Position numbers and translations under genes: made by a program. This document shows positions 9,205 through 32,312 of a stretch of DNA of 39,305 nt, in pieces. A model generated the notes under the pieces. The model was not told the origin of the DNA. It searched no databases and was given only the letters and a program-made list of their open reading frames with translations. This DNA is from Vampirovibrionia bacterium (GTDB taxonomy: Bacteria > Cyanobacteriota > Vampirovibrionia > LMEP-6097), in assembly GCA_049314535.1 (NCBI GenBank), contig JBMOEX010000003.1, positions 1 to 39,305 of the forward strand, read 5' to 3'. The stretch's first letter is position 1, and every line of letters begins with the position of its first letter.

Positions 9205-12200
9205 CTAAAGAGTAAGTAGCTGAGGATCTTGCATAATTCTCTCAACAACGTAAGGACTCTTTGACAGTGCAAATAAAAAGCGCCACAATTTATTACTCAC
9301 TGGGAAATTTTCAGCTTGATCAAGATTATTTAATAAAATCAAAGCAACTTCTTTTAGGCTTTGCCCAGCAGACTTTTCCAATATTTTACTTACCGTTTCA
9401 TCGCCTAGCATTTTGACCAAGTTACCTAATTCACCATCTAAATTTGCAGTTTCCAATTTCTGCTTCAATTGTGAAATTTTCCGCAAAGCTGGCTGAACTA
9501 CCAATGGGTTAATATCCATAGTTTTAGCAATAGTAAATTGTTGTACCGCAGAGGCTTGAACAAATTTACTTAATAATGTCAAAGAAATATTTTCATTCTG
9601 CATTAGATCATCTATACTCGCGAACTTAGATACAGAAGCCAATAATTTAAGATCTTGTGACGTTATCGAATTAATAATTTTCCAAAATGATTTATCTTGT
9701 AATAAAGCTTTAAGCTCTGGTGGCAAACTCTGATTCATTTCTTGAGCTAAACCTAAGTCTATAAGAGTGATTTCATAATTACCTTTATCGTCTTTATTAA
9801 TGAAGATATTACCGTCGTGAGGATCTACGTGAATAAATTTATCAGCAGAATAACTGAAAAATTTAGAAATTTCTTCCTCAAGAAAAGCCACTTCTCGCTC
9901 CGCCTCATCACGACTAGCAGCCCGCCCAACAGCTTCTTTAATATTTTTAAAAGAATCCCCAGGAGCACGAGTTTCTGCGATAATGACAGAGTTCGAGTAT
10001 TTACTGCGAACTGAAGATACCGCAAATCTAACATTAGCAGCTGATCTGGATGCATTATATTCCTTAATGACTAAACTATTCATCTTAAGCATGTTTCCAG
10101 CTTCTATTTCTAAATCTGTCTCTTCTTTTATATCTGCAAAAATTCTTTCTGCGTACTTCGGAATATTTCTGATGCCGAATTCTTTTTCCAAAACTGGGGA
10201 AAGTGCTTCTATTAGATAATTAAAATCGTCTATCTCTGTATCTAAAGACTTATCAGCTCTCATCCTTCTTACTTTTAACACCATCTCATCTTCATTTATT
10301 TCAGTAAGATAGACACATTTAATACTCGCTGAACCACGTAGGTCTAACACCTTAATACTCTGAGCTTTCAACTCAGGACTAGTATCAATAGCCTGCATAA
10401 ACTCATCTAAAGGAATAGGAGCATTAGAATCTTTTAAATCAGATAATTTATCATATAAAACAGGAAACCTTGTTTTTATCTCCATTTGAGAAGATAATAT
10501 CTGAGCAAATTTAACTCCCACAGTACCATAAGCAGAAAGTAAAGTTTGAACCAGATCTTCAAATTCTAAGGTAGGAGTTTTCACAAGTTTATCTACCATT
10601 CTATTCATGATTTCGAGCTTCTTTACTTCATTTTGAGAATCAAAAACTTTATACAGTGCTTCTTTTACGACAACTTTAAGACTATTTCTATCAAGAACCT
10701 GTTTAGAAGTAGCTAATTCTGGTGTTAAAGAATCAGCAAATAAATCATCTAAAAGAGTGTTAAGCTCTTCTTTATTATTAAAGAAACCTTGTGCGCCAAC
10801 GCAAACCTCCTGAATAACAGCGTCTCTTAATGGCTTTATCTCTTTAAATAATTCTTTTATTTGATCTGGCTTAATAGAGAATTTAAGAAAATATTTTTTC
10901 CACTTGTCATCAAGTTCTGCACGAGAGCCAACTAACCACATCAGAGTGTCACGTATCCTGCCTAAGTCACCGTTTTCACTATCAATTAAAAAACTTAAAG
11001 CTGCTCCAGCTCCATGATGTGCAGAACGATCTTGCTTAAAAGCTTCAAACGAATTCTTTAAAAATAGATCTTCATGTTTTTTGTAATCCTCTATAAAAAA
11101 ACCAGTTGAGAGGAAAGCTTTTTCTAAGCGCAAATCCCTCTCTTGGCTGGGTTCTTTAAGGACATCTGTAATTATTTTAACTTTATCTTCCAAACTTAAA
11201 ACTCTAGGTAAATTAGCATCTAAATACATTTCCTTTAACTTAATCGCTTTAAATTCTGAATCATAAGAATTAATAATCTTTAACTGAGTCTCAGAGTCAA
11301 GTTCTTTAAATTCTTTATTCTGACTAAAAATCTTATTTAACACTACATCTCGATACTGACTGGGCTCACTCCAATTCTCTTCAAACCAATTAACTATTTC
11401 CGATAGAGACTTCTGCTTAAACTCATCTATATTTTTATTAAAGTACAGATAATAAGGATAATCTCTGTTTTGAATACTATTAGAAAATTTAACACGACCA
11501 AGTATTTTTTCAATTTCCGGAAATTTAAGCCCTGGAGTTTCCAGTATATCTGAGAGATTATTGGATTTTGATAAATCTATCTCTCTGCCTGAAGCCAAAA
11601 AATCTTTAAATCTTAAAAGACTGTTTTCATCAAAATTTTGAATATTTTGTTGCTTTAAATATACCTCAAATAAAGGTATCTCTAATTCACTAGGAACAAT
11701 ACTTAGCAAAAATTTAAAAGATTTATCATCATCCATAAAACTTCTTAATTTCGGTTCAACTGCATTTAAAAAAATTTCCCCGACTTCAGATGGTGACAAT
11801 GTCTCTCCATCCAAATTCATAAGCAGCGTTTGATCTTTTTGAAAAATATTACTGTTTGTAAAGGTGTTATAAGCCGCTGTCACTGAACTATAGATAGAAC
11901 ATAACGAAGATTCTTGAAGCCGTAGACCAGTTCCTTTTATAAGCCTATCTACTCCGAGTCCATCTAACTGCAGCTCAGGGCTAATGACTTGTTGAAAATA
12001 CATGTAAGTTAATAAATCTGAAGAATGATTATGCTTTTTAATTTCCCGTACAAGATTAGCAATCCCCTCTTCATTACTCGAATTAATATAAGCAAATAAA
12101 TTATTTAAAACTGAATCAGTATAAACAGGTTTGTTTATATTATCAAATAACGAAAGATTAGGTAAACTTGCCCCTATAGTTATATCAGATTCAACTAACA

Positions 12201-14124
12201 CTAATCCAGATTGACTTAAGGAATTATAATAAATACGACCTAAGCTGACATCTTTGTGTACATACTCGAATGGGACATGGATGAAATTGCTATTGCTATG
12301 ATCCACGACTCCTTTTGCATCTTGCATATCAAGCGTGTGACTTTCTAGGAGAATTAATAAACACTGGATTTTATCAGAATCTTCAGTTAAAAAAAGAGAA
12401 TCTAAAAGATCTTGCTTCGAGAATTTACTCGCAAATTCTGAATTAGCCAATCCACCAATTGAGTCCAATAAAGTCCCTGGATTCATTTTACAATCACTAA
12501 GAAAATAATTTCTCACAAGAGAAGATTCTCCTGCAAGAAAATTCAGACTAGTAATTTCCATATATTGAAAAATATTATTAATTAAATCAGGCTTATGTCG
12601 ATTAAGATCCAAGTATTTTTCAAATTCTGTAACAAAACCATCATTATTTTCAAATCTCAAAGAGAACTGACTAATCCGCATATCTAATTTATGAAAAATT
12701 TCTAAAACTTCATTAATTTCAGAATTTTTTATAGTGTATGGATTCTGCAGTAATGAACCTTCTCGACCATTAATCAATTCGTAAAGTTGAATAATTATTT
12801 CTTTTCTGATTATCGGATAATTACTCATTTTATATGGTATTAATTGTAAGTCAAGCTCCTGAAAATTAATTTCACTAGCGAGTTTAATCAGGGCATCTAA
12901 GGATAATTTCTGGGTCTCTGGATATGAAGGTTTCTCAAGCTGATTATCAGCTGCATATTTTGATACTTCCTCCAATGCTCCTTCATCCCAAAAATCCCGA
13001 ATCGTAGCCATTTTACATATTTCTAAAAAAGAATCAAAACCAGATATACTTTTATCTAAATCGCTTAAAGTTTCGTCTGTAAGAATTCTAGTTTTTTCCA
13101 ATAAATCAGAATAAAAGGTCTCTTTGTCCCCTTCACCATTATAATATGTTGGTATTTCTTCTAGCTGGGCTAATTTCTCTGATATAACTCGCGCTGCCAC
13201 TATGTAAGCTTCTTCTAGAGTTCTAGGAGCTCTTCTTTCAAGCTCATCAATATCATACTTAGCTTCTATAGCAATTTCTTTAGAAACCTCTGGTGCTAGG
13301 AGTTTATTACTAAGAGGAGATATATATTCTCCAGATTGACGTGAATATATTTGATTATATGTTTGCAATAGAAATAAATCTCTATCAGAGCCATGTGGAT
13401 GTGAATCTAAGAAAGGAATAGGTTTTAGATCACCAGCATCTCCAAATAAAGTACCAAAAATACCTAAAACTGCTTGAATATCATAACCCGCTTTATGCAT
13501 CAATTTCATAGCTGTTTGATCAGCAAAATCTTCCTCCCAAGTATTATTCTTATTTAAAACATTATCCTGAAGCTCAGCTTTTCTCTGTGCCGCACAAGCA
13601 TGCCCCATTTCATGTGAAATTAGAAACGCTATAACATCATGAACTTTATTAGTTGAAGTATATGCCTCTTCAACCCTTGCTAATAATCCAGTAGCGCTGT
13701 AAAGGCTATTTATTCCTTTTTCATAAAATGCATTAACCAGCTTTGTATCCAAGATATCAATACTGAAATGACCATCTTGGGTGATAGCTTCTTGAAGTAT
13801 TTTATTATCAGCATTTTGCGTTAATATCTCGCTCAAAACAGCTTTAACTAACTTAACTAAAGCAGGTCTTGCTTCATCAGTAATTATTATCCCCTCTAAA
13901 TTTTTACGAAAATCAGTACTTTTAAAATTATCTGACACGGGAGCAGCAGAAGCTACTTGAGTTAAAGGCTGTAACAAAGCCGCTCCAAAAAGAGCTGCTT
14001 GAGTTATAGAACCATTATTAGGATGACTAGCTGGAGAAACATTGTGTATTAGAATTGCATTATTTGCGGGCTTTAGAATATTTCCTTGGCTCTGTGTATA
14101 AACCTTCCGCGATATATTAGTCAA
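9205..14124 (-). CDS. Large protein: N-terminal M48 Zn-metallopeptidase domain, long helical linker, C-terminal ABC1/UbiB (AarF) atypical kinase domain
   Basis: M48 motifs: VNAF, ISHEMGH, EEDFAD...AGYD, FLDSHP. ABC1 motifs: GVKFAQILSS, GSASIKCVY, VLKVRR, EETDLEIEAGN, FIHVDPHDGNIF, LIDLGLA. TTG start is uncertain. Confidence 0.75.
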   Translation of the reverse strand: MTNISRKVYTQSQGNILKPANNAILIHNVSPASHPNNGSITQAALFGAALLQPLTQVASAAPVSDNFKSTDFRKNLEGIIITDEARPALVKLVKAVLSEILTQNADNKILQEAITQDGHFSIDILDTKLVNAFYEKGINSLYSATGLLARVEEAYTSTNKVHDVIAFLISHEMGHACAAQRKAELQDNVLNKNNTWEEDFADQTAMKLMHKAGYDIQAVLGIFGTLFGDAGDLKPIPFLDSHPHGSDRDLFLLQTYNQIYSRQSGEYISPLSNKLLAPEVSKEIAIEAKYDIDELERRAPRTLEEAYIVAARVISEKLAQLEEIPTYYNGEGDKETFYSDLLEKTRILTDETLSDLDKSISGFDSFLEICKMATIRDFWDEGALEEVSKYAADNQLEKPSYPETQKLSLDALIKLASEINFQELDLQLIPYKMSNYPIIRKEIIIQLYELINGREGSLLQNPYTIKNSEINEVLEIFHKLDMRISQFSLRFENNDGFVTEFEKYLDLNRHKPDLINNIFQYMEITSLNFLAGESSLVRNYFLSDCKMNPGTLLDSIGGLANSEFASKFSKQDLLDSLFLTEDSDKIQCLLILLESHTLDMQDAKGVVDHSNSNFIHVPFEYVHKDVSLGRIYYNSLSQSGLVLVESDITIGASLPNLSLFDNINKPVYTDSVLNNLFAYINSSNEEGIANLVREIKKHNHSSDLLTYMYFQQVISPELQLDGLGVDRLIKGTGLRLQESSLCSIYSSVTAAYNTFTNSNIFQKDQTLLMNLDGETLSPSEVGEIFLNAVEPKLRSFMDDDKSFKFLLSIVPSELEIPLFEVYLKQQNIQNFDENSLLRFKDFLASGREIDLSKSNNLSDILETPGLKFPEIEKILGRVKFSNSIQNRDYPYYLYFNKNIDEFKQKSLSEIVNWFEENWSEPSQYRDVVLNKIFSQNKEFKELDSETQLKIINSYDSEFKAIKLKEMYLDANLPRVLSLEDKVKIITDVLKEPSQERDLRLEKAFLSTGFFIEDYKKHEDLFLKNSFEAFKQDRSAHHGAGAALSFLIDSENGDLGRIRDTLMWLVGSRAELDDKWKKYFLKFSIKPDQIKELFKEIKPLRDAVIQEVCVGAQGFFNNKEELNTLLDDLFADSLTPELATSKQVLDRNSLKVVVKEALYKVFDSQNEVKKLEIMNRMVDKLVKTPTLEFEDLVQTLLSAYGTVGVKFAQILSSQMEIKTRFPVLYDKLSDLKDSNAPIPLDEFMQAIDTSPELKAQSIKVLDLRGSASIKCVYLTEINEDEMVLKVRRMRADKSLDTEIDDFNYLIEALSPVLEKEFGIRNIPKYAERIFADIKEETDLEIEAGNMLKMNSLVIKEYNASRSAANVRFAVSSVRSKYSNSVIIAETRAPGDSFKNIKEAVGRAASRDEAEREVAFLEEEISKFFSYSADKFIHVDPHDGNIFINKDDKGNYEITLIDLGLAQEMNQSLPPELKALLQDKSFWKIINSITSQDLKLLASVSKFASIDDLMQNENISLTLLSKFVQASAVQQFTIAKTMDINPLVVQPALRKISQLKQKLETANLDGELGNLVKMLGDETVSKILEKSAGQSLKEVALILLNNLDQAENFPVSNKLWRFLFALSKSPYVVERIMQDPQLLTL

Positions 14125-19869: not shown

Positions 19870-20346
19870 TTACAGTGTAGCCATCTTATTCGTCTCTTTT
19901 TGCATTTTCTGCTGCTCTTCCTGCTCTTTATTCCAGTAGGATTCCTCTACCCTTAAAGCACCTAAAGATGCTTTTAAAACAGCGATAGCCTGCCTAGTCA
20001 CAGCTGAACTCCCTGAATCCTTGGAGAAATCTGTCCAAGCACCATGCGTGTCCTTAATCAAGCCAGCATCATAAGCAATAGTTCTAATAACTTCATGCTG
20101 ATCAGCAGGACTTAACTCATGCTTACTTTCCAAGTAAGCTTGAAAATCTTCACGAGTCTCACTAGCACTTTTAGCAGTATTCCTAGTCGTACTAGTATCA
20201 CCAGCCTTAATTCTCTTAGTCGCTTCCGCTCCTTCCAATTCTAAAAAATCCGACATAAGACCTTCTAGCTGGGTGATTTCCTGCTGTGCAGAATCGATCA
20301 GTGACCGGGTCTGCGATAATCTTACTGTTGGATCAATAGAACTCAT
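19870..20346 (-). CDS. Hypothetical helical protein, paralog of 20384..20668
   Basis: 158-aa ORF whose N- and C-terminal segments align with the neighbouring 94-aa ORF. Confidence 0.75.
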   Translation of the reverse strand: MSSIDPTVRLSQTRSLIDSAQQEITQLEGLMSDFLELEGAEATKRIKAGDTSTTRNTAKSASETREDFQAYLESKHELSPADQHEVIRTIAYDAGLIKDTHGAWTDFSKDSGSSAVTRQAIAVLKASLGALRVEESYWNKEQEEQQKMQKETNKMATL

Positions 20347-20383
20347 AATTTACCTATCTAAAGAATGATTATTTAATCAGTCC

Positions 20384-20668
20384 TTAGCCTGCTCCACTCG
20401 CTAGTTTATTTGTTGCTTGAATATCTTTCTTATTCTCATCAATCTCCGACTTCCAGAATTGAGATTCGTTTCTCCAAAAACCAAGTAAAGACTTAGTCGT
20501 CGTAACCTCTGTCCTTAAAGCTGCCGCTGATATTCTTCCAGCATCTGTGTCAATAGCCAAAGCCTCTGACATCTGATTCTCTAAATCAGTAAGTATATCC
20601 TGATTTAATTCTACGAAAAACTCGCACTGTGCATGCCTGACCGATGGATTCACTGCATTTAAAGCCAT
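20384..20668 (-). CDS. Hypothetical small helical-hairpin protein, paralog of 19870..20346
   Basis: 94-aa ORF abutting the upstream gene, with GGAG in the SD position; shares motifs PxVR..Q, LE..MS and W..E...TNK.A with its neighbour. Confidence 0.75.
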   Translation of the reverse strand: MALNAVNPSVRHAQCEFFVELNQDILTDLENQMSEALAIDTDAGRISAAALRTEVTTTKSLLGFWRNESQFWKSEIDENKKDIQATNKLASGAG

Positions 20669-21304
20669 TTATATTCCCTCCTGTTTTCTCATTCTCTCTA
20701 ACCTGACTAACTGCATGCGATACTCCTCCTCTGATGAATTAGTTCTAAAAGCTTTCTTTACAAGTGCATAATGATCAAATCTTTCCTCACTTGAAGAAGC
20801 ATCCTTAAAAATTGCCCGCCCAAGACCTTCTAATTTTTTCTGTTGATCTTGCAGTTTTTCAATCTTCTTGTTTAACTCCTCATCATTACGCATATCTTTT
20901 GCGGTTTTTCTAGCCCAAGAAGCGACGTCACGCAAAGCCTCAATACCACCAGTAGAAGCAACTTGAATTAATTGAACAAAATCATCTGGTATGTCGATTT
21001 GATTTAAAATTGTTTTCTGTATTTTCTCAAATTTTTCTTTATACTCATCTTGCTTACCCTTGTCTAATTCTCTTTTTTTGGCATCAGCCATATTATCTGC
21101 AAGAACAGCAAGCTGATTTAAAGCAGAAATAAACTGAAGTGATGATTCAACATCTGTTTTAAGAGCTACATGCGATGACTCTAAAGATTTATACTGTTTT
21201 ATATTTGCATCTTTATTCTTTTCAACAAGAAAATTATCAAAATTCTCATCCTTGAGCCGCGAAAAAGTTATTTCCCTTAAAGCATCGATATTAATTTCAC
21301 TCAT
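20669..21304 (-). CDS. Hypothetical coiled-coil protein
   Basis: 211-aa charged, helical-looking ORF with SD-like AAGGGG upstream; first gene of a three-gene run. Confidence 0.7.
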   Translation of the reverse strand: MSEINIDALREITFSRLKDENFDNFLVEKNKDANIKQYKSLESSHVALKTDVESSLQFISALNQLAVLADNMADAKKRELDKGKQDEYKEKFEKIQKTILNQIDIPDDFVQLIQVASTGGIEALRDVASWARKTAKDMRNDEELNKKIEKLQDQQKKLEGLGRAIFKDASSSEERFDHYALVKKAFRTNSSEEEYRMQLVRLERMRKQEGI

Positions 21305-24252: not shown

Positions 24253-24573
24253 ATGCAGGGACATAATTACGGATATATACCAATGCCAACAGAAGGAATC
24301 AAAGTTCCTAAACCGACTATTCAGGGTGCGGCAGAATATAACCTAGTAGAGGGGCAAAGTTTTGGTCAAACATTAACCAATATTATAGGGAAAGCCAATG
24401 AAACGATAGGAGCACCACAACAATTGACCATAGATGCAGTAACTAAAGGAAATGTAGATATACACGAAGTAATGGTGGCACTAGGTAAGTCAGAAGTAGC
24501 ATTTAAATTAATTTCATCTCTTTCTCAAAAAGTAATTGGAGGCTTTGAGAAACTTGTCAGTATGCAAGTTTAA
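24253..24573 (+). CDS. fliE: Flagellar hook-basal body protein FliE
   Basis: Motifs SFGQTL, G.VDIHEVMVAL.KSEVAF and QKVIGGFEKLVSMQV (typical C-terminus); SD AAGGA upstream. Confidence 0.85.
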   Translation: MQGHNYGYIPMPTEGIKVPKPTIQGAAEYNLVEGQSFGQTLTNIIGKANETIGAPQQLTIDAVTKGNVDIHEVMVALGKSEVAFKLISSLSQKVIGGFEKLVSMQV

Positions 24574-24670
24574 CCTTGTCTTTAATTAATCATACATATT
24601 TGTTATCTTATGTTTAAGGACGGGTATATCGTAGTATATCTATACCTAGCAGGATAAGGGTTTAGTAGTA

Positions 24671-26464
24671 ATGGCAAGCGAAGTAATAGCTGATAACGGA
24701 ATGAACGAAGGGGTCGGCGGAGGGAATGCCCCTCTTAGCTATGCTAATGCTCAAACCAGTCAAGGTTTTATAAATGACATAATCTCAGACCCACAGAAGC
24801 GGCTTTACGCCATTATCGGGGTCTCTGTGGTCGCAGTTTTATTAGTAACTTTTATTTACATAGGTGCTCAGCCTAAAAATGAGAATAGAGGTAAATTAGT
24901 ACCTTTAGTTCAAGAATTAAATCAATCAAGAGCTTTTGAAATTATCGCTAAATTAAAATCAGTAAATATTGAAGCAAAAGTAGTAAATGGTGAAAAACCA
25001 GGAGAATACGTAGTTCAAGTTTACGAAAAAGCTATAGAAACAGCTTACCTAGCACTTTCCAGAACTAATTTATTAGAGGATGAAGGTTATGGTCTTTTCG
25101 ACCAAAATGACTGGGCTGCTAGTGATTACGATAAAAGAATAAAACTCACAAGGGCCATAAATGGTGATTTATCTAAAATCATCAGCCGCCTTGATGGCTT
25201 AAGAACAGCTATCGTTAGAGTAAACATACCAGAGCAGCAATTATTCACAGAACAGCAGTCCCCAACTACGGCAACGGTACAACTAGAATTAGCAAATGAT
25301 GCCGAGAAATTATCTAAAACCCAGATACAGAGCATAGTTAACATACTGCGTGGTTATATTCAGAACATCAAAGAAGATCATATCTCTATAGTAGACACGC
25401 AAGGTAATAATTACAGTGCTTACAAAGAAGAAACTGAATCAGACGTCGAAGATTACATAGACGAAGTAGAAAAAATAAATACCAAAATGAAAGAGAGAAT
25501 TAGCAAGTATCTTGATGCTATTCTCGGCGCAGAAGATTATAAAGTCAGTGTCAGTGCTTCCGTTAGTAGAGAAAAAGTAGAACAGCAAGAAACCACATAC
25601 ACAGAGGGAGCTGTAGGCTCAAGACAGACAGGCACCGAATATCTCAATCAAGGTGAAAATGCAGCAGTACCAGCAGCAGGTGCTACTAATGGTAAAAACT
25701 ATTCTCATCAATCAGTTAATGAAAGCCTGTTACCAAGCTTTGAGCAAAAACACACAACATACCTACCAGGCAGAGTTACTGACGTAACCGTAGCCTTAGC
25801 TTTAGACAAATCAGTTCCATCAATGGTCTCATTAAAACAGCTTCAAGAAAGTGTCGCTGCCATTATAGGGCCGGATATAGATCCAGAAAATGTAAAAATC
25901 ACTATCGCAGATTTACACGCCAAAGACCAGCTAGAAGCACCAGTGAAAGCCGTTGAGACTCCTCAAGGTTGGTTTGACAGCATGGGATTCTGGGGTAAAG
26001 CTATGACTATAATTGGTTTTATAGCCCTTGCCTTAATCGTCAGTTTATTTGGCTTAAGCTTTCTAAGTTCTTTTGCTAACAAAGACAGTCAAGCAGAAAC
26101 AGATGTCTATCCAGACTTAGGCAATGAGTTTGAAGATGACATACCAACAAACAGTATAGAAGAAGGTAATGATGGTGAAGATTACGGTGAGAAAGAAGCC
26201 TTAAGGCAGCAAGAATCTCTATTAAAAGAAATGATGAGCCAAAGTGCACCACCAAAATACTTCGAACAACAAGAACAGAGCAATATTTATGATAAGGGCA
26301 GCATGAGGCAAAGTTCTCCACTGTCATTAAGTGGCAACGTTGGCAATTCAAATAACGAAGAGATTAGATTTGAATCATTATTAAATAATTTTGAGAGTGT
26401 AGCGAACAGAAAACCAGACCTGCTTGCTAAAAAGATTGAAGTTTGGTTAGATGAAAAAGAATAA
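24671..26464 (+). CDS. fliF: Flagellar MS-ring protein FliF
   Basis: TM1; ring-building motifs GYGLFD, RAINGDLSKII, VRVNIPEQQLF and ISIVDTQGN; RBM3 region; TM2; C-terminal KPDLLAKKIEVWL helix. Confidence 0.88.
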   Translation: MASEVIADNGMNEGVGGGNAPLSYANAQTSQGFINDIISDPQKRLYAIIGVSVVAVLLVTFIYIGAQPKNENRGKLVPLVQELNQSRAFEIIAKLKSVNIEAKVVNGEKPGEYVVQVYEKAIETAYLALSRTNLLEDEGYGLFDQNDWAASDYDKRIKLTRAINGDLSKIISRLDGLRTAIVRVNIPEQQLFTEQQSPTTATVQLELANDAEKLSKTQIQSIVNILRGYIQNIKEDHISIVDTQGNNYSAYKEETESDVEDYIDEVEKINTKMKERISKYLDAILGAEDYKVSVSASVSREKVEQQETTYTEGAVGSRQTGTEYLNQGENAAVPAAGATNGKNYSHQSVNESLLPSFEQKHTTYLPGRVTDVTVALALDKSVPSMVSLKQLQESVAAIIGPDIDPENVKITIADLHAKDQLEAPVKAVETPQGWFDSMGFWGKAMTIIGFIALALIVSLFGLSFLSSFANKDSQAETDVYPDLGNEFEDDIPTNSIEEGNDGEDYGEKEALRQQESLLKEMMSQSAPPKYFEQQEQSNIYDKGSMRQSSPLSLSGNVGNSNNEEIRFESLLNNFESVANRKPDLLAKKIEVWLDEKE

Positions 26465-26853
26465 TGACAGCGACAGAAGAAAAGAAAAACAAAAAATTAA
26501 AATCCTTAGCATTAATTCTTAGATCGCTTGCCCCTGAATCACAAAGGGCTATTTACAAACAGCTTCCAGACGAATTAGTCAGAAGAATAACTCAGGTAAG
26601 CCTAGATATAGATAAAGAATTAACCAAAGAAGACTGGGAAATTTTCACTCACTCTTGGCCAGAATTTTCACATTTAATCAGTGGCGTAGTACAAGAAACC
26701 CAATATGAACACTGCGCAAAATTTAAAAATAAAGAAAGACCAAAAGTACAGGAGTACCTAGACTATAAAATGGGGAATAAAAAAGGGAGACCTAATTTAA
26801 GTAGTTCAATTACCCGAATAATCGATAACTTCATATCCCAAAATGCTAATTAA
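26464..26853 (+). CDS. fliG: FliG N-terminal-domain-only protein
   Basis: Occupies the fliG slot between fliF and fliH. KSLALILRSLAPESQRAIYKQLPDELVRRIT resembles FliG_N. Only 129 aa. Confidence 0.55.
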   Translation: MTATEEKKNKKLKSLALILRSLAPESQRAIYKQLPDELVRRITQVSLDIDKELTKEDWEIFTHSWPEFSHLISGVVQETQYEHCAKFKNKERPKVQEYLDYKMGNKKGRPNLSSSITRIIDNFISQNAN

Positions 26854-29770
26854 AGCACAAAAAAGAAAAGCCACAAGTTCGACAAGTTTTCAAAACCAAT
26901 CAGCAGCTAGATTTGAGCAAGCTGAACAATTAATGCCGTCATTACAAGAGGTTCAGATTTCTGAGCAAGTACAAGCCCCTGTTATTCACATTGACAGAGC
27001 TGAAATTCAGAAAGTAGTTGAAATAGAAAAACAGATCATACTGCAAGAATTTGAAGCTGAAATAGCAGAAAAAAGAAGAATTGTTGAAACAGAGATACAG
27101 AGCAAACTTGAAGAAATAGAAATCAATTTAGCAAATATACAACAACGTGAACATGAAATAGAAACTATTTTATCTACAGAGAAACAAAATTTAGAAATCG
27201 AAAAAGCTGCTGAACAAGAGAGAATTCAGACCATAGAGCAGCAGCTTCAAAGTCAATTCGAGACTGCGATTCAGCAAGGCTTTGAACAAGGATATCAAGA
27301 AGCTAAAACAAATTTAGATAAAGTAAGTAGTGAATTTGAAGAAATTATCCATAATATGCATCGCTCTAAAGAAGTACTTCTTCTAGAGATAGAACCACAA
27401 ATCACCAGCATAGCCCTAGAAGTAGCGAGAAAAATTTTACAAAGGGAAAGCAAACTAGATAGCAACCTGATTCTAGAACAAGTAAAAAGCGCCATCCGAA
27501 AAGTTACTATTCGAGGTGGTCTCCTCGAAGTAAGTATCAATCCAGAAGATACTCAGCATCAAACTGACCTAGAAAGTGCCTTAGATAAAATGCTTGATAA
27601 AGAAGTTAGATTAATTTTCAAGGAAGATCCCAGTGTAAGTCAAGGCTCTTGCATAGTTGATACCCAAGGCGGCCAATTAAATGCAAATTTTAAAATTCAG
27701 ATCGAGTCTGTTAAATTAGCTTTTGAGAAATACTTCGGCAAAGAAATAATTTTAATAGAGGCTCCAGATGAAGAGGAAATACCACTTGAGTTAGAGGCAG
27801 TCACAGAGTTAGAAGAGATACTGCCTGAATTAGAAGCAGTCACAGAGTTAGAAGAAATACCACTTGAGCTAGAAGCAGTCACAGAGCCAGAAGAAATACT
27901 GCCTGAATTAGAAGCCGTCACAGAGTTAGAAGAGATAACACTTGAGCCAGAAGCAGTCGCAGAGCTAGAAGAAATAGCACTTGAGCTAGAGCCAGTCACA
28001 GAGTTAGAAGAGATATCACTTGAGCCAGAAGCAGTCACAGAGCTAGAAGAGATAGCGATTGAGATAGAAGCAGTCACAGAGTTAGAAGAAATACCACTTG
28101 AGTTAGAGGCAGTCACAGAGCTAGAAGAAATACCACTTGAGCTAGAGCCAGTCACAGAGTTAGAAGAGATACCACTTGAGCTAGAAGCAGTCACAGAGCC
28201 AGAAGAAATATCACTTGAGTTAGAAGCAGTCACAGAGCCAGAAGAGATCAACTTCACCGAGAATCTAGATAATCAATTTATTTTTGAAAGTGCAGTAGAC
28301 GCACAAAGTCAACAAAATTCAAATGAAGCCTTTTCAGCCGATACTTTAGCTTTAATGAACGAACTAGATTTAGCCTTCAATCCAAGAGACATTAGCAATT
28401 CCACCGATGAATACATCAACCTTGAGACCCTAGATGCCGAGCTGGAATCGGTTTTAAGTGAAGATGTTAATCATGTTGAGATAAAAATAGAAGATGTTAA
28501 TCATGTTGAGATAGAAGCAGAAGGTCTTAGTCATATCGAAAACACAGAAATTGAAAATTGCGAGCAGTCTCTTGAAAATCTTAATACACCTGAAAACCCT
28601 AGCGAGATTAAAGACGATATAGAAATTAAAGACCACAACGAAATTAAAAACTCTAATAAAACTGAAGATATTAACTTAGAAGATTTACAGGCATTATTTG
28701 CAGCTGACAGTGAAGAAGAAGAAGAAGAAGAAGAAGCAGAAGAAGAAGCAATCACAGAACATCCAAACAATCAGCTTATTTTCGAGAGTATAACAAGCAC
28801 GCTGGATCAACACCACTCAAGTGAAGCTTTCTCTGCTAATGCTCTACAATTGATGAACGAACCAGATTCAGCCTTCAATCAAAAACACATTAGCAATTCC
28901 ACAGATGAGCACATCAACATTGAGACCCTAGATGCTGAGCTGGAATCGGTTTTAGGCAAAGAGGTTAATCATGTTGAAATAAAAATAGAAGATGTTAATC
29001 ATGTTGAGATAGAAGCAGAAGGTCTTAGTCATATCGAAATAGAACCGACTGAAGATCTTAGTAAAACTGCAAGCCCTAGCGAGATTAAAGACGATACAGA
29101 GATTAAAGACGATACAGAAATTAAAGACCACAACGAAATTAAAAACCCTAGCAAAATCGAAGATATTAACTTAGAAGATTTACAGGCATTATTTGCAGCT
29201 GATAGTGAAGAAACTGTAGATGAGGAAACGAATGCAGACCTTGATTTCATTCTAGATCAACTTAAAGAAAATACACCAATTGATCTAGAAAATGATGGGT
29301 CTAATGAGAGTAAAGTAATAGAGGAGACTGATGAATTAGATAAAATCATGGACAAATCAGATTTAGATAAAATAGATTTAAATTTCGACCTTGAGTCACC
29401 AGATGAAGAGGATTTGGAGGCACTGGAAGAGAGCATGGATGCACTATTGACAGAAGTTGAGGGTGAAGACACAGATGAGCTCGAAGCTTTACTCGGGGCA
29501 AGCAGTATTAAGTTTAACTTCTCAGAAGATGATGATGAGCTGCCAGAAATTGTCACAGACGAACTTGAAGAAGATGATGATGACAAAGAACTGCCAGAGA
29601 TTGTCATTGAGGAGATTGAAGATGATGATGAGGTGATAACCAGTATCACCGATGAAGAAGAAATAGATTTCAGCGAAAATCCTAAAAAAGATCCAGTCTT
29701 TGAAGAATTTGATGAAGGTTACGATGATGACTACAGTGAAGGCAGCGATCCTCGCTTTCCAGATTACTAA
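26843..29770 (+). CDS. fliH: FliH/SctL-family export protein with very long acidic repeat tail
   Basis: AIQQGFEQGYQEA (AxxxGxxxGxxxA), IALEVARKIL, VSINPED and DPSVSQGSCIVDTQGGQLNA in the first ~300 aa; then ~665 aa of D/E-rich repeats. Confidence 0.8.
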   Translation: MLIKAQKRKATSSTSFQNQSAARFEQAEQLMPSLQEVQISEQVQAPVIHIDRAEIQKVVEIEKQIILQEFEAEIAEKRRIVETEIQSKLEEIEINLANIQQREHEIETILSTEKQNLEIEKAAEQERIQTIEQQLQSQFETAIQQGFEQGYQEAKTNLDKVSSEFEEIIHNMHRSKEVLLLEIEPQITSIALEVARKILQRESKLDSNLILEQVKSAIRKVTIRGGLLEVSINPEDTQHQTDLESALDKMLDKEVRLIFKEDPSVSQGSCIVDTQGGQLNANFKIQIESVKLAFEKYFGKEIILIEAPDEEEIPLELEAVTELEEILPELEAVTELEEIPLELEAVTEPEEILPELEAVTELEEITLEPEAVAELEEIALELEPVTELEEISLEPEAVTELEEIAIEIEAVTELEEIPLELEAVTELEEIPLELEPVTELEEIPLELEAVTEPEEISLELEAVTEPEEINFTENLDNQFIFESAVDAQSQQNSNEAFSADTLALMNELDLAFNPRDISNSTDEYINLETLDAELESVLSEDVNHVEIKIEDVNHVEIEAEGLSHIENTEIENCEQSLENLNTPENPSEIKDDIEIKDHNEIKNSNKTEDINLEDLQALFAADSEEEEEEEEAEEEAITEHPNNQLIFESITSTLDQHHSSEAFSANALQLMNEPDSAFNQKHISNSTDEHINIETLDAELESVLGKEVNHVEIKIEDVNHVEIEAEGLSHIEIEPTEDLSKTASPSEIKDDTEIKDDTEIKDHNEIKNPSKIEDINLEDLQALFAADSEETVDEETNADLDFILDQLKENTPIDLENDGSNESKVIEETDELDKIMDKSDLDKIDLNFDLESPDEEDLEALEESMDALLTEVEGEDTDELEALLGASSIKFNFSEDDDELPEIVTDELEEDDDDKELPEIVIEEIEDDDEVITSITDEEEIDFSENPKKDPVFEEFDEGYDDDYSEGSDPRFPDY
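27773..28240 (+). repeat. Coding tandem repeat, 12 x 39 bp (13-aa unit EEIPLELEAVTEL)
   Basis: Twelve contiguous degenerate copies counted in both DNA and protein, with no spacers. Confidence 0.95.
28271..29212 (+). repeat. Internal duplication of ~445 bp (28271..28717 and 28769..29212) within fliH, with a (GAA)8 run at 28712..28735
   Basis: Both copies contain NQ.IFES...ETLDAELESVL...VNHVEIKIEDVNHVEIEAEGLSHIE...EDINLEDLQALFAADSEE. Confidence 0.92.
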
Positions 29771-29806: not shown

Positions 29807-30382
29807 ATGAGTACATTAAATGTTACTGTAAGAGCGGAGTACACGCCGAACCCCAATAGTTTAAAATTCATATGCAGTGAAACCCTTTATCCATACGGAG
29901 GATCACTATCATACAGCTCTCAAGCGGCAGCGGAAGCGGCTGAAAACCCCGTAGCTATAAGATTGTTCAACATAGAAGGCTTGAATAAAATATTTATCAT
30001 GTCAAATTTTGTCACCATTGACAAAGAAGATCATATTAATTGGAAAGATATTCACCTAGAAGTGAAGGAAGCTATTAAAGATAATTTATCCTCTTTTAAA
30101 AAATGGGCTGAAGAAAACGCCCCAGCCGTCCCAGAAAGTGATGGTAGTGAAGGCGGTCTTAGAGTAGAAATAGAAAGAGTGCTTGATAAAATCAGACCTT
30201 CTTTAATGGCTGACGGTGGAAATATAGAACTCGTGGACATAATCGGCACGGATGCGAGATTAAGGATGGTAGGAGCCTGTGGGACCTGCCCAAGTTCACT
30301 TATGACGATGAAGATGGGAGTGGAGAGAGCTTTGCTTTCTGAGCTGCCTGGTAAGGTTGAAACTGTGACGCAGGTTTTTTAG
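29807..30382 (+). CDS. Nfu1/NifU-family Fe-S cluster scaffold (Nfu_N + NifU_C domains)
   Basis: N-terminal motif TPNPNSLKF; C-terminal motifs IRPSLMADGGNIEL and GACGTCPSS (CxxC). Confidence 0.9.
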   Translation: MSTLNVTVRAEYTPNPNSLKFICSETLYPYGGSLSYSSQAAAEAAENPVAIRLFNIEGLNKIFIMSNFVTIDKEDHINWKDIHLEVKEAIKDNLSSFKKWAEENAPAVPESDGSEGGLRVEIERVLDKIRPSLMADGGNIELVDIIGTDARLRMVGACGTCPSSLMTMKMGVERALLSELPGKVETVTQVF

Positions 30383-30399
30383 GAAAATATTTTTTAACT

Positions 30400-30873
30400 T
30401 CAACTCAATAACTGGTATTCGTAGAAAAGATCAAATAATTGATTCCTAATTTTCCGAAGCTCTCTGTCAGTACGTTCCCCAAGTGTAAATAAAGAACAGT
30501 GCGAATTATCTTTTTCTAAGGCTGTATCTAAAACAATTAATTGCCTTTCTCGGGATTCATCTGTAAGAGAGCGAACTTGAATGCATTTGATTTTTGCAAA
30601 AGCAGCCGACTGTTCTTGACGTAGTCTCTGAGTGCTTCGTGCTGACCTATTAATTGCATTATCTTTCATAATGTTGAAATTTACATAATTTTCTCTATGA
30701 CAGCTAAGTCCCCTGCTACGAAGGTCACTAATTGACATTGAGCTATCAAGAAATCTTGAGTTATCATCAATATCTGCAGGACTAGAATAAGTCCTCAACA
30801 AAACCTCATTATTATCAACCACTGCAGGTGAGAATTCTGACTGTTTTATCGTTTCATCTTCGAGAGTGCGCAT
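30400..30873 (-). CDS. Hypothetical protein, possible ADP-ribosyltransferase-fold toxin
   Basis: 157-aa ORF with EVLLR...GLSCHR...NSHCSL spacing reminiscent of small ART-fold proteins; overlaps the upstream gene. Confidence 0.55.
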   Translation of the reverse strand: MRTLEDETIKQSEFSPAVVDNNEVLLRTYSSPADIDDNSRFLDSSMSISDLRSRGLSCHRENYVNFNIMKDNAINRSARSTQRLRQEQSAAFAKIKCIQVRSLTDESRERQLIVLDTALEKDNSHCSLFTLGERTDRELRKIRNQLFDLFYEYQLLS

Positions 30874-31487
30874 TGAAACCCCATAAGCAAGATTACAAGT
30901 AATTGTAAATCAAATTCTATATTACTAAATTCCTTATCGTCCTCTCCGAACTCTTTATCTTTAATTTTGGCATAATAAGAATAAATACCAGAACCATAAA
31001 AACCTATATCAAATCTAGCTTCTGGCAAATTCCACCAAAAATTTATCTCACCATCATTCATCAAAGAAACTATGGGCTGCTCAATCTCATCAAGAATGCG
31101 CCTGTCTTTTAATAAATATATAAAGTCCTCTGCTTCTTGAATCGCTTTAGCTGTAGGTGCTTTCGCACATTCACCATCCCAAGTATCCTCCAAAACAGCA
31201 AAAGAACGAACTTTTTCAATTAATAATTGTCCGCTATCTCTAAGAGTAGACTTCCAAGGAACACTCTCTGATTTATTAAATACCACTTGTTGAGTATTAG
31301 GATTAAGATTAAGCCATAAAGGCTTTCCATCGGCTAGATAAATATAAGTAATCACACCTTGCTTGTAAGTATGTGATGATTCAATAGCAAATCCTTGCTT
31401 AGATGAAGTCCCAGAGTTCCAAACATTTTCTGGGAGAGTAGCAGACTTCATCGTCTCAGGCATATTCATGATAGATGCTAAATTCAT
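30846..31487 (-). CDS. Hypothetical protein (WDG-motif family), middle gene of the TIGR04255-like module
   Basis: SD AGGAGAGG upstream; motif LEDTWDGECAKAP...DGEINFWW. Confidence 0.7.
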   Translation of the reverse strand: MNLASIMNMPETMKSATLPENVWNSGTSSKQGFAIESSHTYKQGVITYIYLADGKPLWLNLNPNTQQVVFNKSESVPWKSTLRDSGQLLIEKVRSFAVLEDTWDGECAKAPTAKAIQEAEDFIYLLKDRRILDEIEQPIVSLMNDGEINFWWNLPEARFDIGFYGSGIYSYYAKIKDKEFGEDDKEFSNIEFDLQLLVILLMGFQCALSKMKR

Positions 31488-31499
31488 AACCTCTCCTAT

Positions 31500-32312
31500 T
31501 TATCCATTTAAATCAACTAACATTAGTTTCTTTGATACTTCCGCAACAAACATTGATGACAGAAGCTTTTTATTATTATCATGCATATCATCAAGAAATC
31601 TCAAAACAGTTTCATAATTTAGCCATTCACACATATTGGTTAAGAGCATATTATGATCTATTAAGATTGTTGTATTATCAAGATTTCTGATATTCATTGT
31701 TCCAGAGCTAACATTTAATTGATTTAAATATTCGAATAGTCTTCCATCATAAGATATTTTTTCAAACCAGCCAGAATTAGAATGCCAGCGATGACCACTA
31801 TCAAAGGACTTTCTGTTCAGATAGTTATTATCTCTAAAAAGAGTACTTAGCTGATAGTCCTCTCCCTCTTTATTTTTTTTTATAAATGCATCTATGTATC
31901 TTAAAGAAATCGATTCAACTGAATGAGATGAACTTTGAGTAGAATTTTGGAAAATTTGCTTGAGAAGAATAGAAACTATTCCAATAAATCCTTTCCATCT
32001 TTGATAATCAAGACAACGAAGACTTAAGCCAGAAGGCAATACCGCAAGAATCCATTCAGGATTACCATCTTCTTTAAATCTCTTTAATTCAAAACCAAAA
32101 TCATCTTCATAAGAAGGTGACACATCTTCAGCCTGAAATTGAATAGCCCTTACTTTTAGTTCCTCTACCTTAGGAAGAAAAGCTTGCAATTCTTGATTAT
32201 CTCTAATTCCCCGTATTAGCTCTTCTCTTCGAGATTTTTCCAAAGATGAAACAAAGCCCAAATTAAAACTAGCTTCCAATATAGAATGAGCTCTATTAAT
32301 AGGTTCAAACAT
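31500..32312 (-). CDS. TIGR04255-family-like protein
   Basis: Size (270 aa) and pattern FEPIN.AHSILEASF...CLDYQRW..F...ISLRYIDAF...LIDH...LDDMHDNNK recall this family. Confidence 0.7.
   Translation of the reverse strand: MFEPINRAHSILEASFNLGFVSSLEKSRREELIRGIRDNQELQAFLPKVEELKVRAIQFQAEDVSPSYEDDFGFELKRFKEDGNPEWILAVLPSGLSLRCLDYQRWKGFIGIVSILLKQIFQNSTQSSSHSVESISLRYIDAFIKKNKEGEDYQLSTLFRDNNYLNRKSFDSGHRWHSNSGWFEKISYDGRLFEYLNQLNVSSGTMNIRNLDNTTILIDHNMLLTNMCEWLNYETVLRFLDDMHDNNKKLLSSMFVAEVSKKLMLVDLNG

Follow-up and report, generated by a model that had tools for sequence, protein, structure and literature searches.

What kind of machine is encoded by a flagellar gene cluster in which the place of fliG, between fliF and fliH, is taken by a small gene of a different kind? 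The question is raised by a contig of 39,305 nucleotides (nt; GenBank JBMOEX010000003.1, C3 in our numbering), which was analyzed whole and which we refer to as the window. It belongs to a 2.12-Mb assembly (genome G000) of a Vampirovibrionia bacterium, comprising 188 contigs and rated 92% complete, and carries fliE, fliF and fliH together with an open reading frame (ORF) of 129 amino acids (aa) in the fliG slot. We compared it with 150 further genomes of the class, whose members also go by the source names Melainabacteria or Caenarcaniphilales, divided into families f1 to f11, with f1 being that of the window. We think it fairly probable that the window holds part of an anciently separated second flagellar-type system, here called system B, which has no motor, hook or filament and stands beside a normal flagellum, system A. 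System B was found to be the only copy in non-motile gut relatives; the source of the window is a freshwater bacterium.

The layout of the locus agreed with what the first-pass annotation had described, namely the gene order fliE-fliF-129-aa ORF-fliH with tight coupling, all four ORFs lying on the + strand (Table 1). The stop codon of fliF and the start codon of the 129-aa ORF have one base in common (TAATG), and the ATG of fliH lies 11 nt upstream of the stop codon of the 129-aa ORF. Because this ORF overlaps both of its neighbors, there is no space for the remainder of a decayed fliG. The same annotation had placed an Fe-S scaffold gene instead of fliI after fliH, and the next gene indeed encodes a protein with Nfu_N and NifU domains. 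The 129-aa ORF is a real gene under strong purifying selection: the ratio of nonsynonymous to synonymous substitution rates (dN/dS) was 0.027–0.051 against five genomes of the same genus (dS 0.19–0.36), and the ORF was found in 28/29 genomes of its own family. FliF displayed YscJ_FliF (116 bits, E = 2e-33) and YscJ_FliF_C (41.8 bits, E = 2e-10) domains, both above the Pfam cut-offs. Among FliE, FliF and FliH, FliE alone passed an NCBIfam equivalog cut-off (TIGR00205, 43.3 bits vs 30); FliF scored 120.6 bits against the fliF equivalog, under the cut-off of 129.75, and FliH fell far under the cut-offs of all FliH equivalogs (best 60.2 vs 200).

The first-pass annotation had gone on to propose that the machine keeps the membrane-supramembrane (MS) ring and export platform and cannot rotate, and that in this lineage it may serve secretion or contact with a host or prey. 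For the organism this did not stand up, as scans of the genome with hidden Markov models (HMMs) detected a full FliG, FliM, MotA, FlgI, FlgD and several flagellins. The full-length FliG (344 aa, with N, M and C domains) is encoded on C50, alone among housekeeping genes; FliL and FliM are encoded on C71, and a MotA with a MotA_N domain lies beside flgN on C13. A further MotA_ExbB match, on C30, is part of an ExbB-ExbD-TonB set. Since full FliG, FliM, MotA and flagellins are encoded elsewhere in the assembly, the organism is not motor-less. The part of the proposal that held is the one that concerns system B, where synteny across the class and the families with B alone, both described below, favor a ring and export platform without rotation. 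We also observed, on C37 (locus L013, 9467–16561), a tandem of flgK-like (746 aa), flgL-like (418 aa), flgL-like (428 aa) and flgK-like (740 aa) genes; system B does not explain these pairs, because genomes with B alone have no Flagellin_N matches.

The genome contains a second cluster, on C23, with the order flgB-flgC-fliE-fliF-fliH-fliI, in which FliF has 553 aa and FliH 261 aa. The window and C23 copies of FliE, FliF and FliH are only 25–28% identical (FliE 28%, FliF 25%), and a tblastn search of the genome with the four window proteins returned self-matches only, so that the C23 paralogues were missed by it and found by Pfam scans. We counted two FliF, two FliH, two FliE, two FlhA (37% identical to each other), two FliI above the cut-off and two FliP, along with one each of FliG_C, FliM, FlgI and FlgD. 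An unrooted maximum-likelihood tree of 40 FliF, taken along with their genomic neighborhoods from 26 class members, separated clade A (14 sequences) from clade B (26 sequences) with 100/100 support and in 200/200 bootstrap trees, and the window FliF fell into clade B. The branching order of the families with two systems was congruent between the clades. The loci differ accordingly in their layout, A-type loci reading flgB-flgC-fliE-fliF-(fliG in f10 and f11)-fliH-fliI and B-type loci reading (rod genes, lytic transglycosylase)-fliE-fliF-X-fliH-(flhA)(-fliI), where X denotes the slot protein. A tblastn search of plasmids with FliF returned proteobacterial FliF only, at 24–27% identity. As judged from sequence comparison, the window set and the C23 set are shown to be two paralogous systems, B and A, whose lines of descent appear to have run in parallel from before the divergence of the families.

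The distribution of these genes across the class was assessed using Pfam models on six-frame translations, and "not found" is meant in this sense throughout, with the limit that divergent homologues could be missed. Families f1, f2, f3, f5, f10 and f11 displayed two FliF plus FliG_C, FliM, FlgI and flagellin in nearly all genomes, and the canonical motor parts were present in 27–29 of the 29 other f1 genomes. Two f3 genomes, G001 and G008, showed two and three FliG_C matches in full-length ORFs, respectively, compared with one in the other FliG-bearing genomes listed. In G058, G068, G073, G081, G101 and G034 the FlgI match was split (profile positions 1–297 and 278–343) within ORFs of 437–483 aa, a pattern that suggests that some genera have an insertion in their P-ring protein. 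Families f6, f7 and f8 presented a different picture. The tree includes 13 of their FliF loci, each from a different genome, and all of these were B-type; their genomes had mostly a single FliF match, and among those listed G066, G087, G127 and G143 had two. FliG_C was not found in f6 (0/32) or f8 (0/12) and gave one match below the cut-off in f7 (1/9, 20 bits); Flagellin_N, FliM and FlgI were each found in 0/32, 0/9 and 0/12 genomes of f6, f7 and f8. The same families keep FliF (32/32, 8/9 and 11/12), FliH (32/32, 9/9 and 11/12) and FliP (32/32, 7/9 and 11/12, one copy each), and many of the f6 genomes have a completeness rating of 99%. Three B-only genomes (92–99% complete) each encoded one FlhB and one ORF with a FliN domain (348–419 aa), as well as one gene of the MotA/ExbB family in which the MotA and ExbB types are not distinguished; neither FliM nor FlgD was found in these three. 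FlhA was kept in the B-only genomes checked, and in families f4 and f9 none of these genes was found. It is thus well supported by gene content that f6, f7 and f8 have B alone, which is predicted to consist of a ring, a rod, an export gate and an ATPase complex and to have neither switch nor P ring, hook cap or filament.

Comparison with these B-only sets allowed us to assign scattered genes of the window's own genome. The FlhA on C139 is 41–44% identical to the FlhA encoded inside B clusters, compared with 33–35% for the copy on C49, and we assign it to the B type on this similarity. A FliN-domain protein on C12 (444 aa) aligned from end to end with those of the B-only genomes (E = 2e-51 to 2e-22), which identifies it, by similarity, as the orthologue of their lone FliN-domain proteins. 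The FliI on C39 is probably B-type. System A of this genome would then consist of the C23 set, the orphan fliG on C50, fliL-fliM, motA, flgI, flgD, flgK/L and the flagellins, amounting to a normal flagellum, while system B would consist of fliE-fliF-X-fliH of the window, FlhA on C139, the FliN-domain protein on C12, the second FliP and probably FliI on C39.

We examined what the slot gene encodes. The 129-aa protein aligned with the C-terminal ~130 aa of slot proteins of 317–409 aa from other families, and R92 of an ERP motif was invariant across the alignment of short and long forms. The long form of X has a ~175-aa N-terminal helical domain, a linker rich in P, Q and A, and the C domain. From this alignment we take the 129-aa protein to be the C-terminal domain of X and no truncated FliG. 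Of the 26 B loci mapped, 21 have X between fliF-B and fliH-B, and a combined profile detected X in f1 (27/29), f2 (1/1), f3 (2/2), f5 (17/17), f6 (32/32), f8 (11/12), f10 (14/14) and f11 (1/1); with that profile it was not found in f7 (0/9), f4 or f9. The profile of the short form alone gave seven matches among 1.84 billion representatives, and its weak matches in f4, f6, f7 and f10 (E = 1e-3 to 1e-2) were left out of the counts. The databases hold at least 1072 members of the X family, and among 120 listed none had a Pfam domain or a functional name; one of those listed came from "Candidatus Scatousia sp." The 129-aa family itself had 22 database matches, 20 of them of 119–130 aa and one source-named "Candidatus Caenarcaniphilales bacterium", and a search of the ESM Atlas with the 129-aa protein returned its own cluster only. 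Families f1, f2 and f8 are those with the short form, and together they make up a single clade (100/99) in the B part of the FliF tree. A model of the N domain of long X gave generic helical matches only, the best of them (Z 11, cytomegalovirus IE1) under the noise bar for helical proteins. Additional copies of this domain were seen in some genomes: in G074 (f10; L053, 3275–4441) two ORFs of 209 and 177 aa akin to it lie between fliF and X, other f10 genomes have similar extra copies, and many f6 genomes have a further stand-alone N-domain ORF of ~230–250 aa elsewhere.

In flagella, the N-terminal domain of FliG (FliG_N) binds the C-terminal tail of FliF, as is also stated in the titles of Protein Data Bank (PDB) entries, and so the tails of the two FliF types were compared. 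Among eight B-type FliF, tail positions A578, P582, L585, A586, K588, W592 and L593 were invariant, and the FliF-B of f1, f2 and f8 displayed a tail motif ...K-[IL]-x-x-W-[LI]-[DE]-E. We compared ten tails directly, four from B-type FliF with X, four from A-type FliF and two from f7. All four B-type tails from X-bearing families (f1, f3, f5 and f6) had a W four or five residues before the end, and the four A-type tails had Y or F where the B type has W. The two tails from f7, the family in which X was not found, were Pro-rich and without W. Several f7 FliF of the B type (L111–L113 and L119) are longer, at 629–723 aa, with neither X nor fliH adjoining; FliH is present in 9/9 genomes of this family. 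Because of the FliF-tail pattern and the position of the gene, we consider it plausible but unproven that the 129-aa protein sits on the FliF-B tail as a cap, in the manner of FliG_N in flagella.

These observations suggest how system B might be built. The window genes would supply its ring and ATPase-tether components, and, extrapolating from the B-only families, the complete system would assemble an MS ring with rod and type III export gate, along with a cytoplasmic complex of FliH, FliI and a FliN-like protein. The 129-aa protein would replace the N domain of FliG, capping the FliF-B tail by way of an armadillo-like helical fold. The system would be without a FliG/FliM switch, stator interface, P ring, hook and filament; from their presumed absence it follows that B would not rotate, and it would export or anchor something instead. 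Our best guess at its function is type III export or the assembly of a rod-only structure embedded in the envelope. Tail binding, non-rotation in the window's own genome and the export function are what we infer from the combined observations.

The FliH of system B is unusual in its length. The first-pass annotation had put it at about four times normal, close to the 3.7-fold excess that we measured for the 975-aa protein over the C23 copy in this genome (261 aa). The excess comprises a 39-nt repeat array and further repeats. Across the genus of the window the open frame of FliH-B ranged from 476 to 982 aa, and because of this variation we attribute its extreme length to a recent repeat expansion. 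The last residues are RFPDY, and an RFP[DE]Y motif was present in 3/3 f1 FliH-B sequences inspected. FliH-B measured 398–975 aa beside short X (8 loci, f1/f2/f8) and 224–358 aa beside long X (13 loci), and low complexity and an acidic composition mark the FliH-B tails of f2 and f8 too. X would have lost its N-terminal domain in f1, f2 and f8, exactly where FliH-B has a long acidic tail predicted to be disordered; it is a matter of speculation that this tail may take over the function of the lost domain. We dropped the idea that the tail is the N domain of X in a new place, because an HMM of that domain had no match at E ≤ 10, either among the 7595 six-frame ORFs of the window's own genome or in the FliH-B of f1, f2 and f8.

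Is the 129-aa protein itself related to FliG? The first-pass annotation had called it a mini-fliG, that is, the N-terminal part of FliG, and on this point we disagree, since its match is to the C domain of the different slot protein X. Against FliG_N (PF14842) it scored 16.1 bits over residues 13–45 (E = 0.017; cut-off 25 bits), with 15.4 bits in the genome scan, and because this is sub-threshold the label was an inference rather than a database match. It had no Pfam match to FliG_M or FliG_C, and BLASTP against FliG gave E = 0.057. The alternative that it is unrelated to FliG, being a lineage-specific accessory such as a chaperone or regulator of FliH/FliI or of a substrate, seems unlikely to us and has several observations on its side. 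In hhalign its profile matched six FliG of the class with a probability of 0.9% (E = 0.061, 27 columns), a profile search of PDB sequences returned no FliG and two irrelevant weak rows only, the domain is C-terminal in the long form, the reverse of its order in FliG, and the gene is coupled translationally to fliH as well as to fliF. Structure comparison bears on both sides. We aligned an AlphaFold2 (AF2) model of the 129-aa protein, the mini model (predicted local distance difference test, pLDDT, 70), and a separately made model of the long form (pLDDT 85) with 48,161 PDB chains using VIA-align, whose noise bars are Z 8, or 13 for helical proteins. The first two ranks for the mini model were FliG N domains, 3hjl_A residues 5–72 (Z 5.8, 59 aligned, 20% identity) and 5tdy_D (Z 5.3), which is FliG_N from the FliF-FliG complex of T. 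maritima, and these were the only 2 of the 48,161 chains to reach Z ≥ 5; Salmonella FliG residues 1–64 (8umd_B) ranked sixth (Z 4.8). For the long-form model, the sole rows that covered the C domain were a FliG_M and 5wuj_B (Z 6.0, 67 aligned, 25% identity), which is FliG_N from the FliF-FliG complex of H. pylori. In Foldseek the best row for the mini model was again 5tdy_D (E = 0.8), and neither model had a match at E ≤ 0.001. What counts against an unrelated accessory is this agreement of two models on FliG N domains, the position of the gene in the fliG slot in 21/26 B loci, and the fact that its presence tracks the W-type FliF tail in the loci compared. The values of Z 5–6 lie within the range of noise that the tool gives for helical proteins, and the pLDDT of the mini model is 70; because the Z values fall under the noise bars, we grade a FliG_N-like fold of the 129-aa protein as likely but not shown.

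Two other explanations concern the system as a whole. That the organism has only a motor-less export apparatus, the literal form of the first reading, can draw on the window itself, which has no FliG in the fliG slot and no fliI, and is extremely improbable given the FliG, FliM, MotA, FlgI, FlgD, FlgK/L, flagellins and second fliE-fliF-fliH-fliI set of this assembly and the motor parts in nearly all other genomes of the family. It is improbable, to a lesser degree, that B is a second motile flagellum, comparable to the polar and lateral sets of some bacteria, that borrows FliG, FliM, stators, hook and flagellin from A, the B-only sets being non-functional leftovers. The tandem of two FlgK- and two FlgL-like genes on C37, the many flagellins and the f3 genomes with two or three FliG_C matches would fit such a flagellum, and Soo et al. 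2014 (PMC4040986) and 2015 (PMC4451040), in the accessible parts of both papers, interpret partial sets as flagellar loss. Genomes with two systems nevertheless have a single FliM, FlgI and FlgD; the B-only set is intact in 32/32 f6 and 11/12 f8 genomes; purifying selection on the slot gene is strong; where a flagellum has FliG, B has a slot protein of its own, and its FliF tail is distinct; and the two systems have passed down side by side from a time before the families diverged. Our preferred explanation, a second system without a motor, has to accommodate several findings that, along with the weak sequence and structure scores above, weigh against it. The family f7 has a B-type FliF and X was not found there (0/9), and absences scored by Pfam models may conceal divergent homologues, as already said. 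The assignment of the C39 FliI to B is marginal, at 52% identity vs 48–53%. Only one FlhB was detected (C31, 18719–19747) in a genome that is 92% complete, and the second may sit in the unassembled 8%; G004, a complete relative with both systems, has two FlhB. The canonical FliG, FliM and stator of this genome could in principle also serve the FliF-B ring, and no substrate, effector or outer-membrane component of system B was identified, where no search was aimed at secretin, SctD, needle or translocon genes. The hint of expression described below is open to DNA carry-over.

A bolder version of the second-system reading, which we hold only tentatively and regard as possible rather than probable, would make B an autonomous non-rotating nanomachine and a third long-lived branch of type III systems beside flagella and injectisomes, vertically inherited across the class, a sister of the cyanobacteria that does not photosynthesize, and the sole such machine in its human- and animal-gut members, with X as the FliF-tail adaptor at the place of FliG and with a role in export or cell contact.

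Table 1. Features of the system B locus and its downstream neighbor (window coordinates)
Feature	Coordinates	Strand	Description and basis
fliE of system B	24253–24573	+	106 aa; PF02049 48.9 bits (cut-off 22.4), E = 7e-13
fliF of system B, MS-ring protein with conserved C-terminal tail	24671–26464	+	597 aa; YscJ_FliF + YscJ_FliF_C
129-aa slot protein, short form of protein X	26464–26853	+	Alignment to long slot proteins; FliG_N-like fold weakly supported
fliH of system B	26843–29770	+	975 aa; PF02108 58.1 bits (cut-off 24.1), E = 1e-15
FliH domain PF02108 (residues 162–289)	27326–27709	+	Pfam
Acidic low-complexity FliH tail (residues 301–975)	27743–29767	+	35% D/E, 4% K/R
Tandem repeat in fliH	27772–28245	+	12.2 × 39 nt, 13-aa acidic unit; Tandem Repeats Finder score 626, 83% matches
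Nfu-type Fe-S scaffold gene, neighbor outside system B	29807–30382	+	Nfu_N E = 5e-24, NifU E = 2e-22

Contigs from RNA libraries (three studies of freshwater or lake metagenomes) covered fliE, fliF, the 129-aa gene and both ends of fliH, and a single 531-nt contig ran from the end of fliF into the start of fliH; no RNA-library contig covered 27160–28500, where the repeats lie. As RNA libraries may include DNA and a contig is not the same as a transcript, we regard this as a weak hint of expression. One such contig (run X17), derived from a related strain, has 165 other letters in place of 139 nt of the spacer between fliE and fliF (window 24582–24722). The nfu gene also adjoins the B locus in G034, of the sister family, and not in the remaining loci mapped. 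The rest of the window holds housekeeping genes (ATP synthase subunits, ilvN, rpiB, metH and others). Just downstream of nfu, on the opposite strand, ORFs of 157, 213 and 270 aa follow each other (30400–32312, −) with no Pfam match at E ≤ 1e-5. Three neighboring ORFs of 158, 94 and 211 aa (19870–21304, −) match no Pfam family above noise, and in the B locus of a related genome (L090) ORFs of 211 and ~92 aa occupy the corresponding place. A 1639-aa ORF (9205–14124, −) has as its sole recognized part an ABC1 atypical-kinase domain near the C-terminus (residues 1264–1468).

If B is a distinct second system, a match to the KEGG "flagellar assembly" pathway is no proof of a flagellum, and inferences on motility and secretion change with it. 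It would also provide a natural experiment on the flagellar export core without FliG, FliM and stators, and an example of how a type III apparatus can part from its motor independently of the injectisome. Protein X offers a concrete and testable new component of such a machine.

Several known systems resemble B in part. A parallel for the slot is the FliG_N-FliF complex (5tdy, 5wuj, 3hjl), with which B has in common a gene between fliF and fliH, an all-helical model of its product and a conserved FliF tail; the 129-aa protein differs from FliG in having neither FliG_M nor FliG_C, its sequence similarity is not significant, and in long X the domain is C-terminal, following a helical domain of ~175 aa that is unrelated and a linker rich in P and Q.

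For the class itself, Soo et al. 2014 (PMC4040986) read incomplete flagellar sets as a loss of flagella, and Soo et al. 2015 (PMC4451040) deduced one ancestral flagellum with later loss from a fliI tree, as far as the accessible parts of these papers go. A preprint (10.64898/2026.04.24.720558), likewise in its accessible part, reports complete sets in about a quarter of genomes, with ~75% keeping genes such as flhB, fliI and flgG that are "postulated" to serve secretion. In those parts of Soo et al. 2014 and of the preprint the sets are the remains of one flagellum, whereas here they form a separate paralogous system. The partial flagellar sets of gut Gastranaerophilales (Soo et al., 2014) are probably system B genes, to judge from the same part of that paper; what is added here is that in six families B stands next to a complete flagellum, and that it has a slot protein of its own. 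Within the accessible parts of the literature searched nothing was found that describes a pair of paralogous systems or a distinct fliG-slot protein, and the supplements of Soo et al. 2014 may list genes.

System B can further be set beside machines from outside the class. Dual flagellar systems, one polar and one lateral, consist of two sets that are both complete and motile. They resemble the present case in having two paralogous sets per genome and differ from it in that FliG_C, FliM, FlgI and FlgD are single here. The basal body of Buchnera keeps FliG, FliM and FliN. In Buchnera aphidicola, filament-less flagellar basal bodies with their export machinery are kept by a non-motile cell (PMC8109811, accessible part), so that the likeness lies in a basal body with type III export machinery and the difference in its being a reduced single system, compared with a paralogue beside a real flagellum. 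Lysobacter enzymogenes is a non-flagellated predator whose remaining genes resembling the type III secretion system of a flagellum (FT3SS) are proposed to have diverged in function (PMC7688988, accessible part); these are the leftover of one system in one genus, with no such slot protein described in that part of the paper, and B would be an ancient second system. The injectisome, as presented in the accessible part of Abby & Rocha 2012 (PMC3459982), derives from the flagellum through loss of motility parts, and like B it keeps homologues of FliF, FliH, FliI, FliN, FlhA, FlhB and FliP and has no FliG. B is set apart from it by the score of its ring protein, as the window FliF reached 60.3 bits against the SctJ equivalog TIGR02544, under the cut-off of 161.95 and lower than its score with the fliF model, and by keeping FliE, flagellar rod proteins and a lytic transglycosylase. 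What would distinguish system B from Buchnera, Lysobacter and the injectisome alike is that it is an old paralogue, coexists with a working flagellum set and carries protein X.

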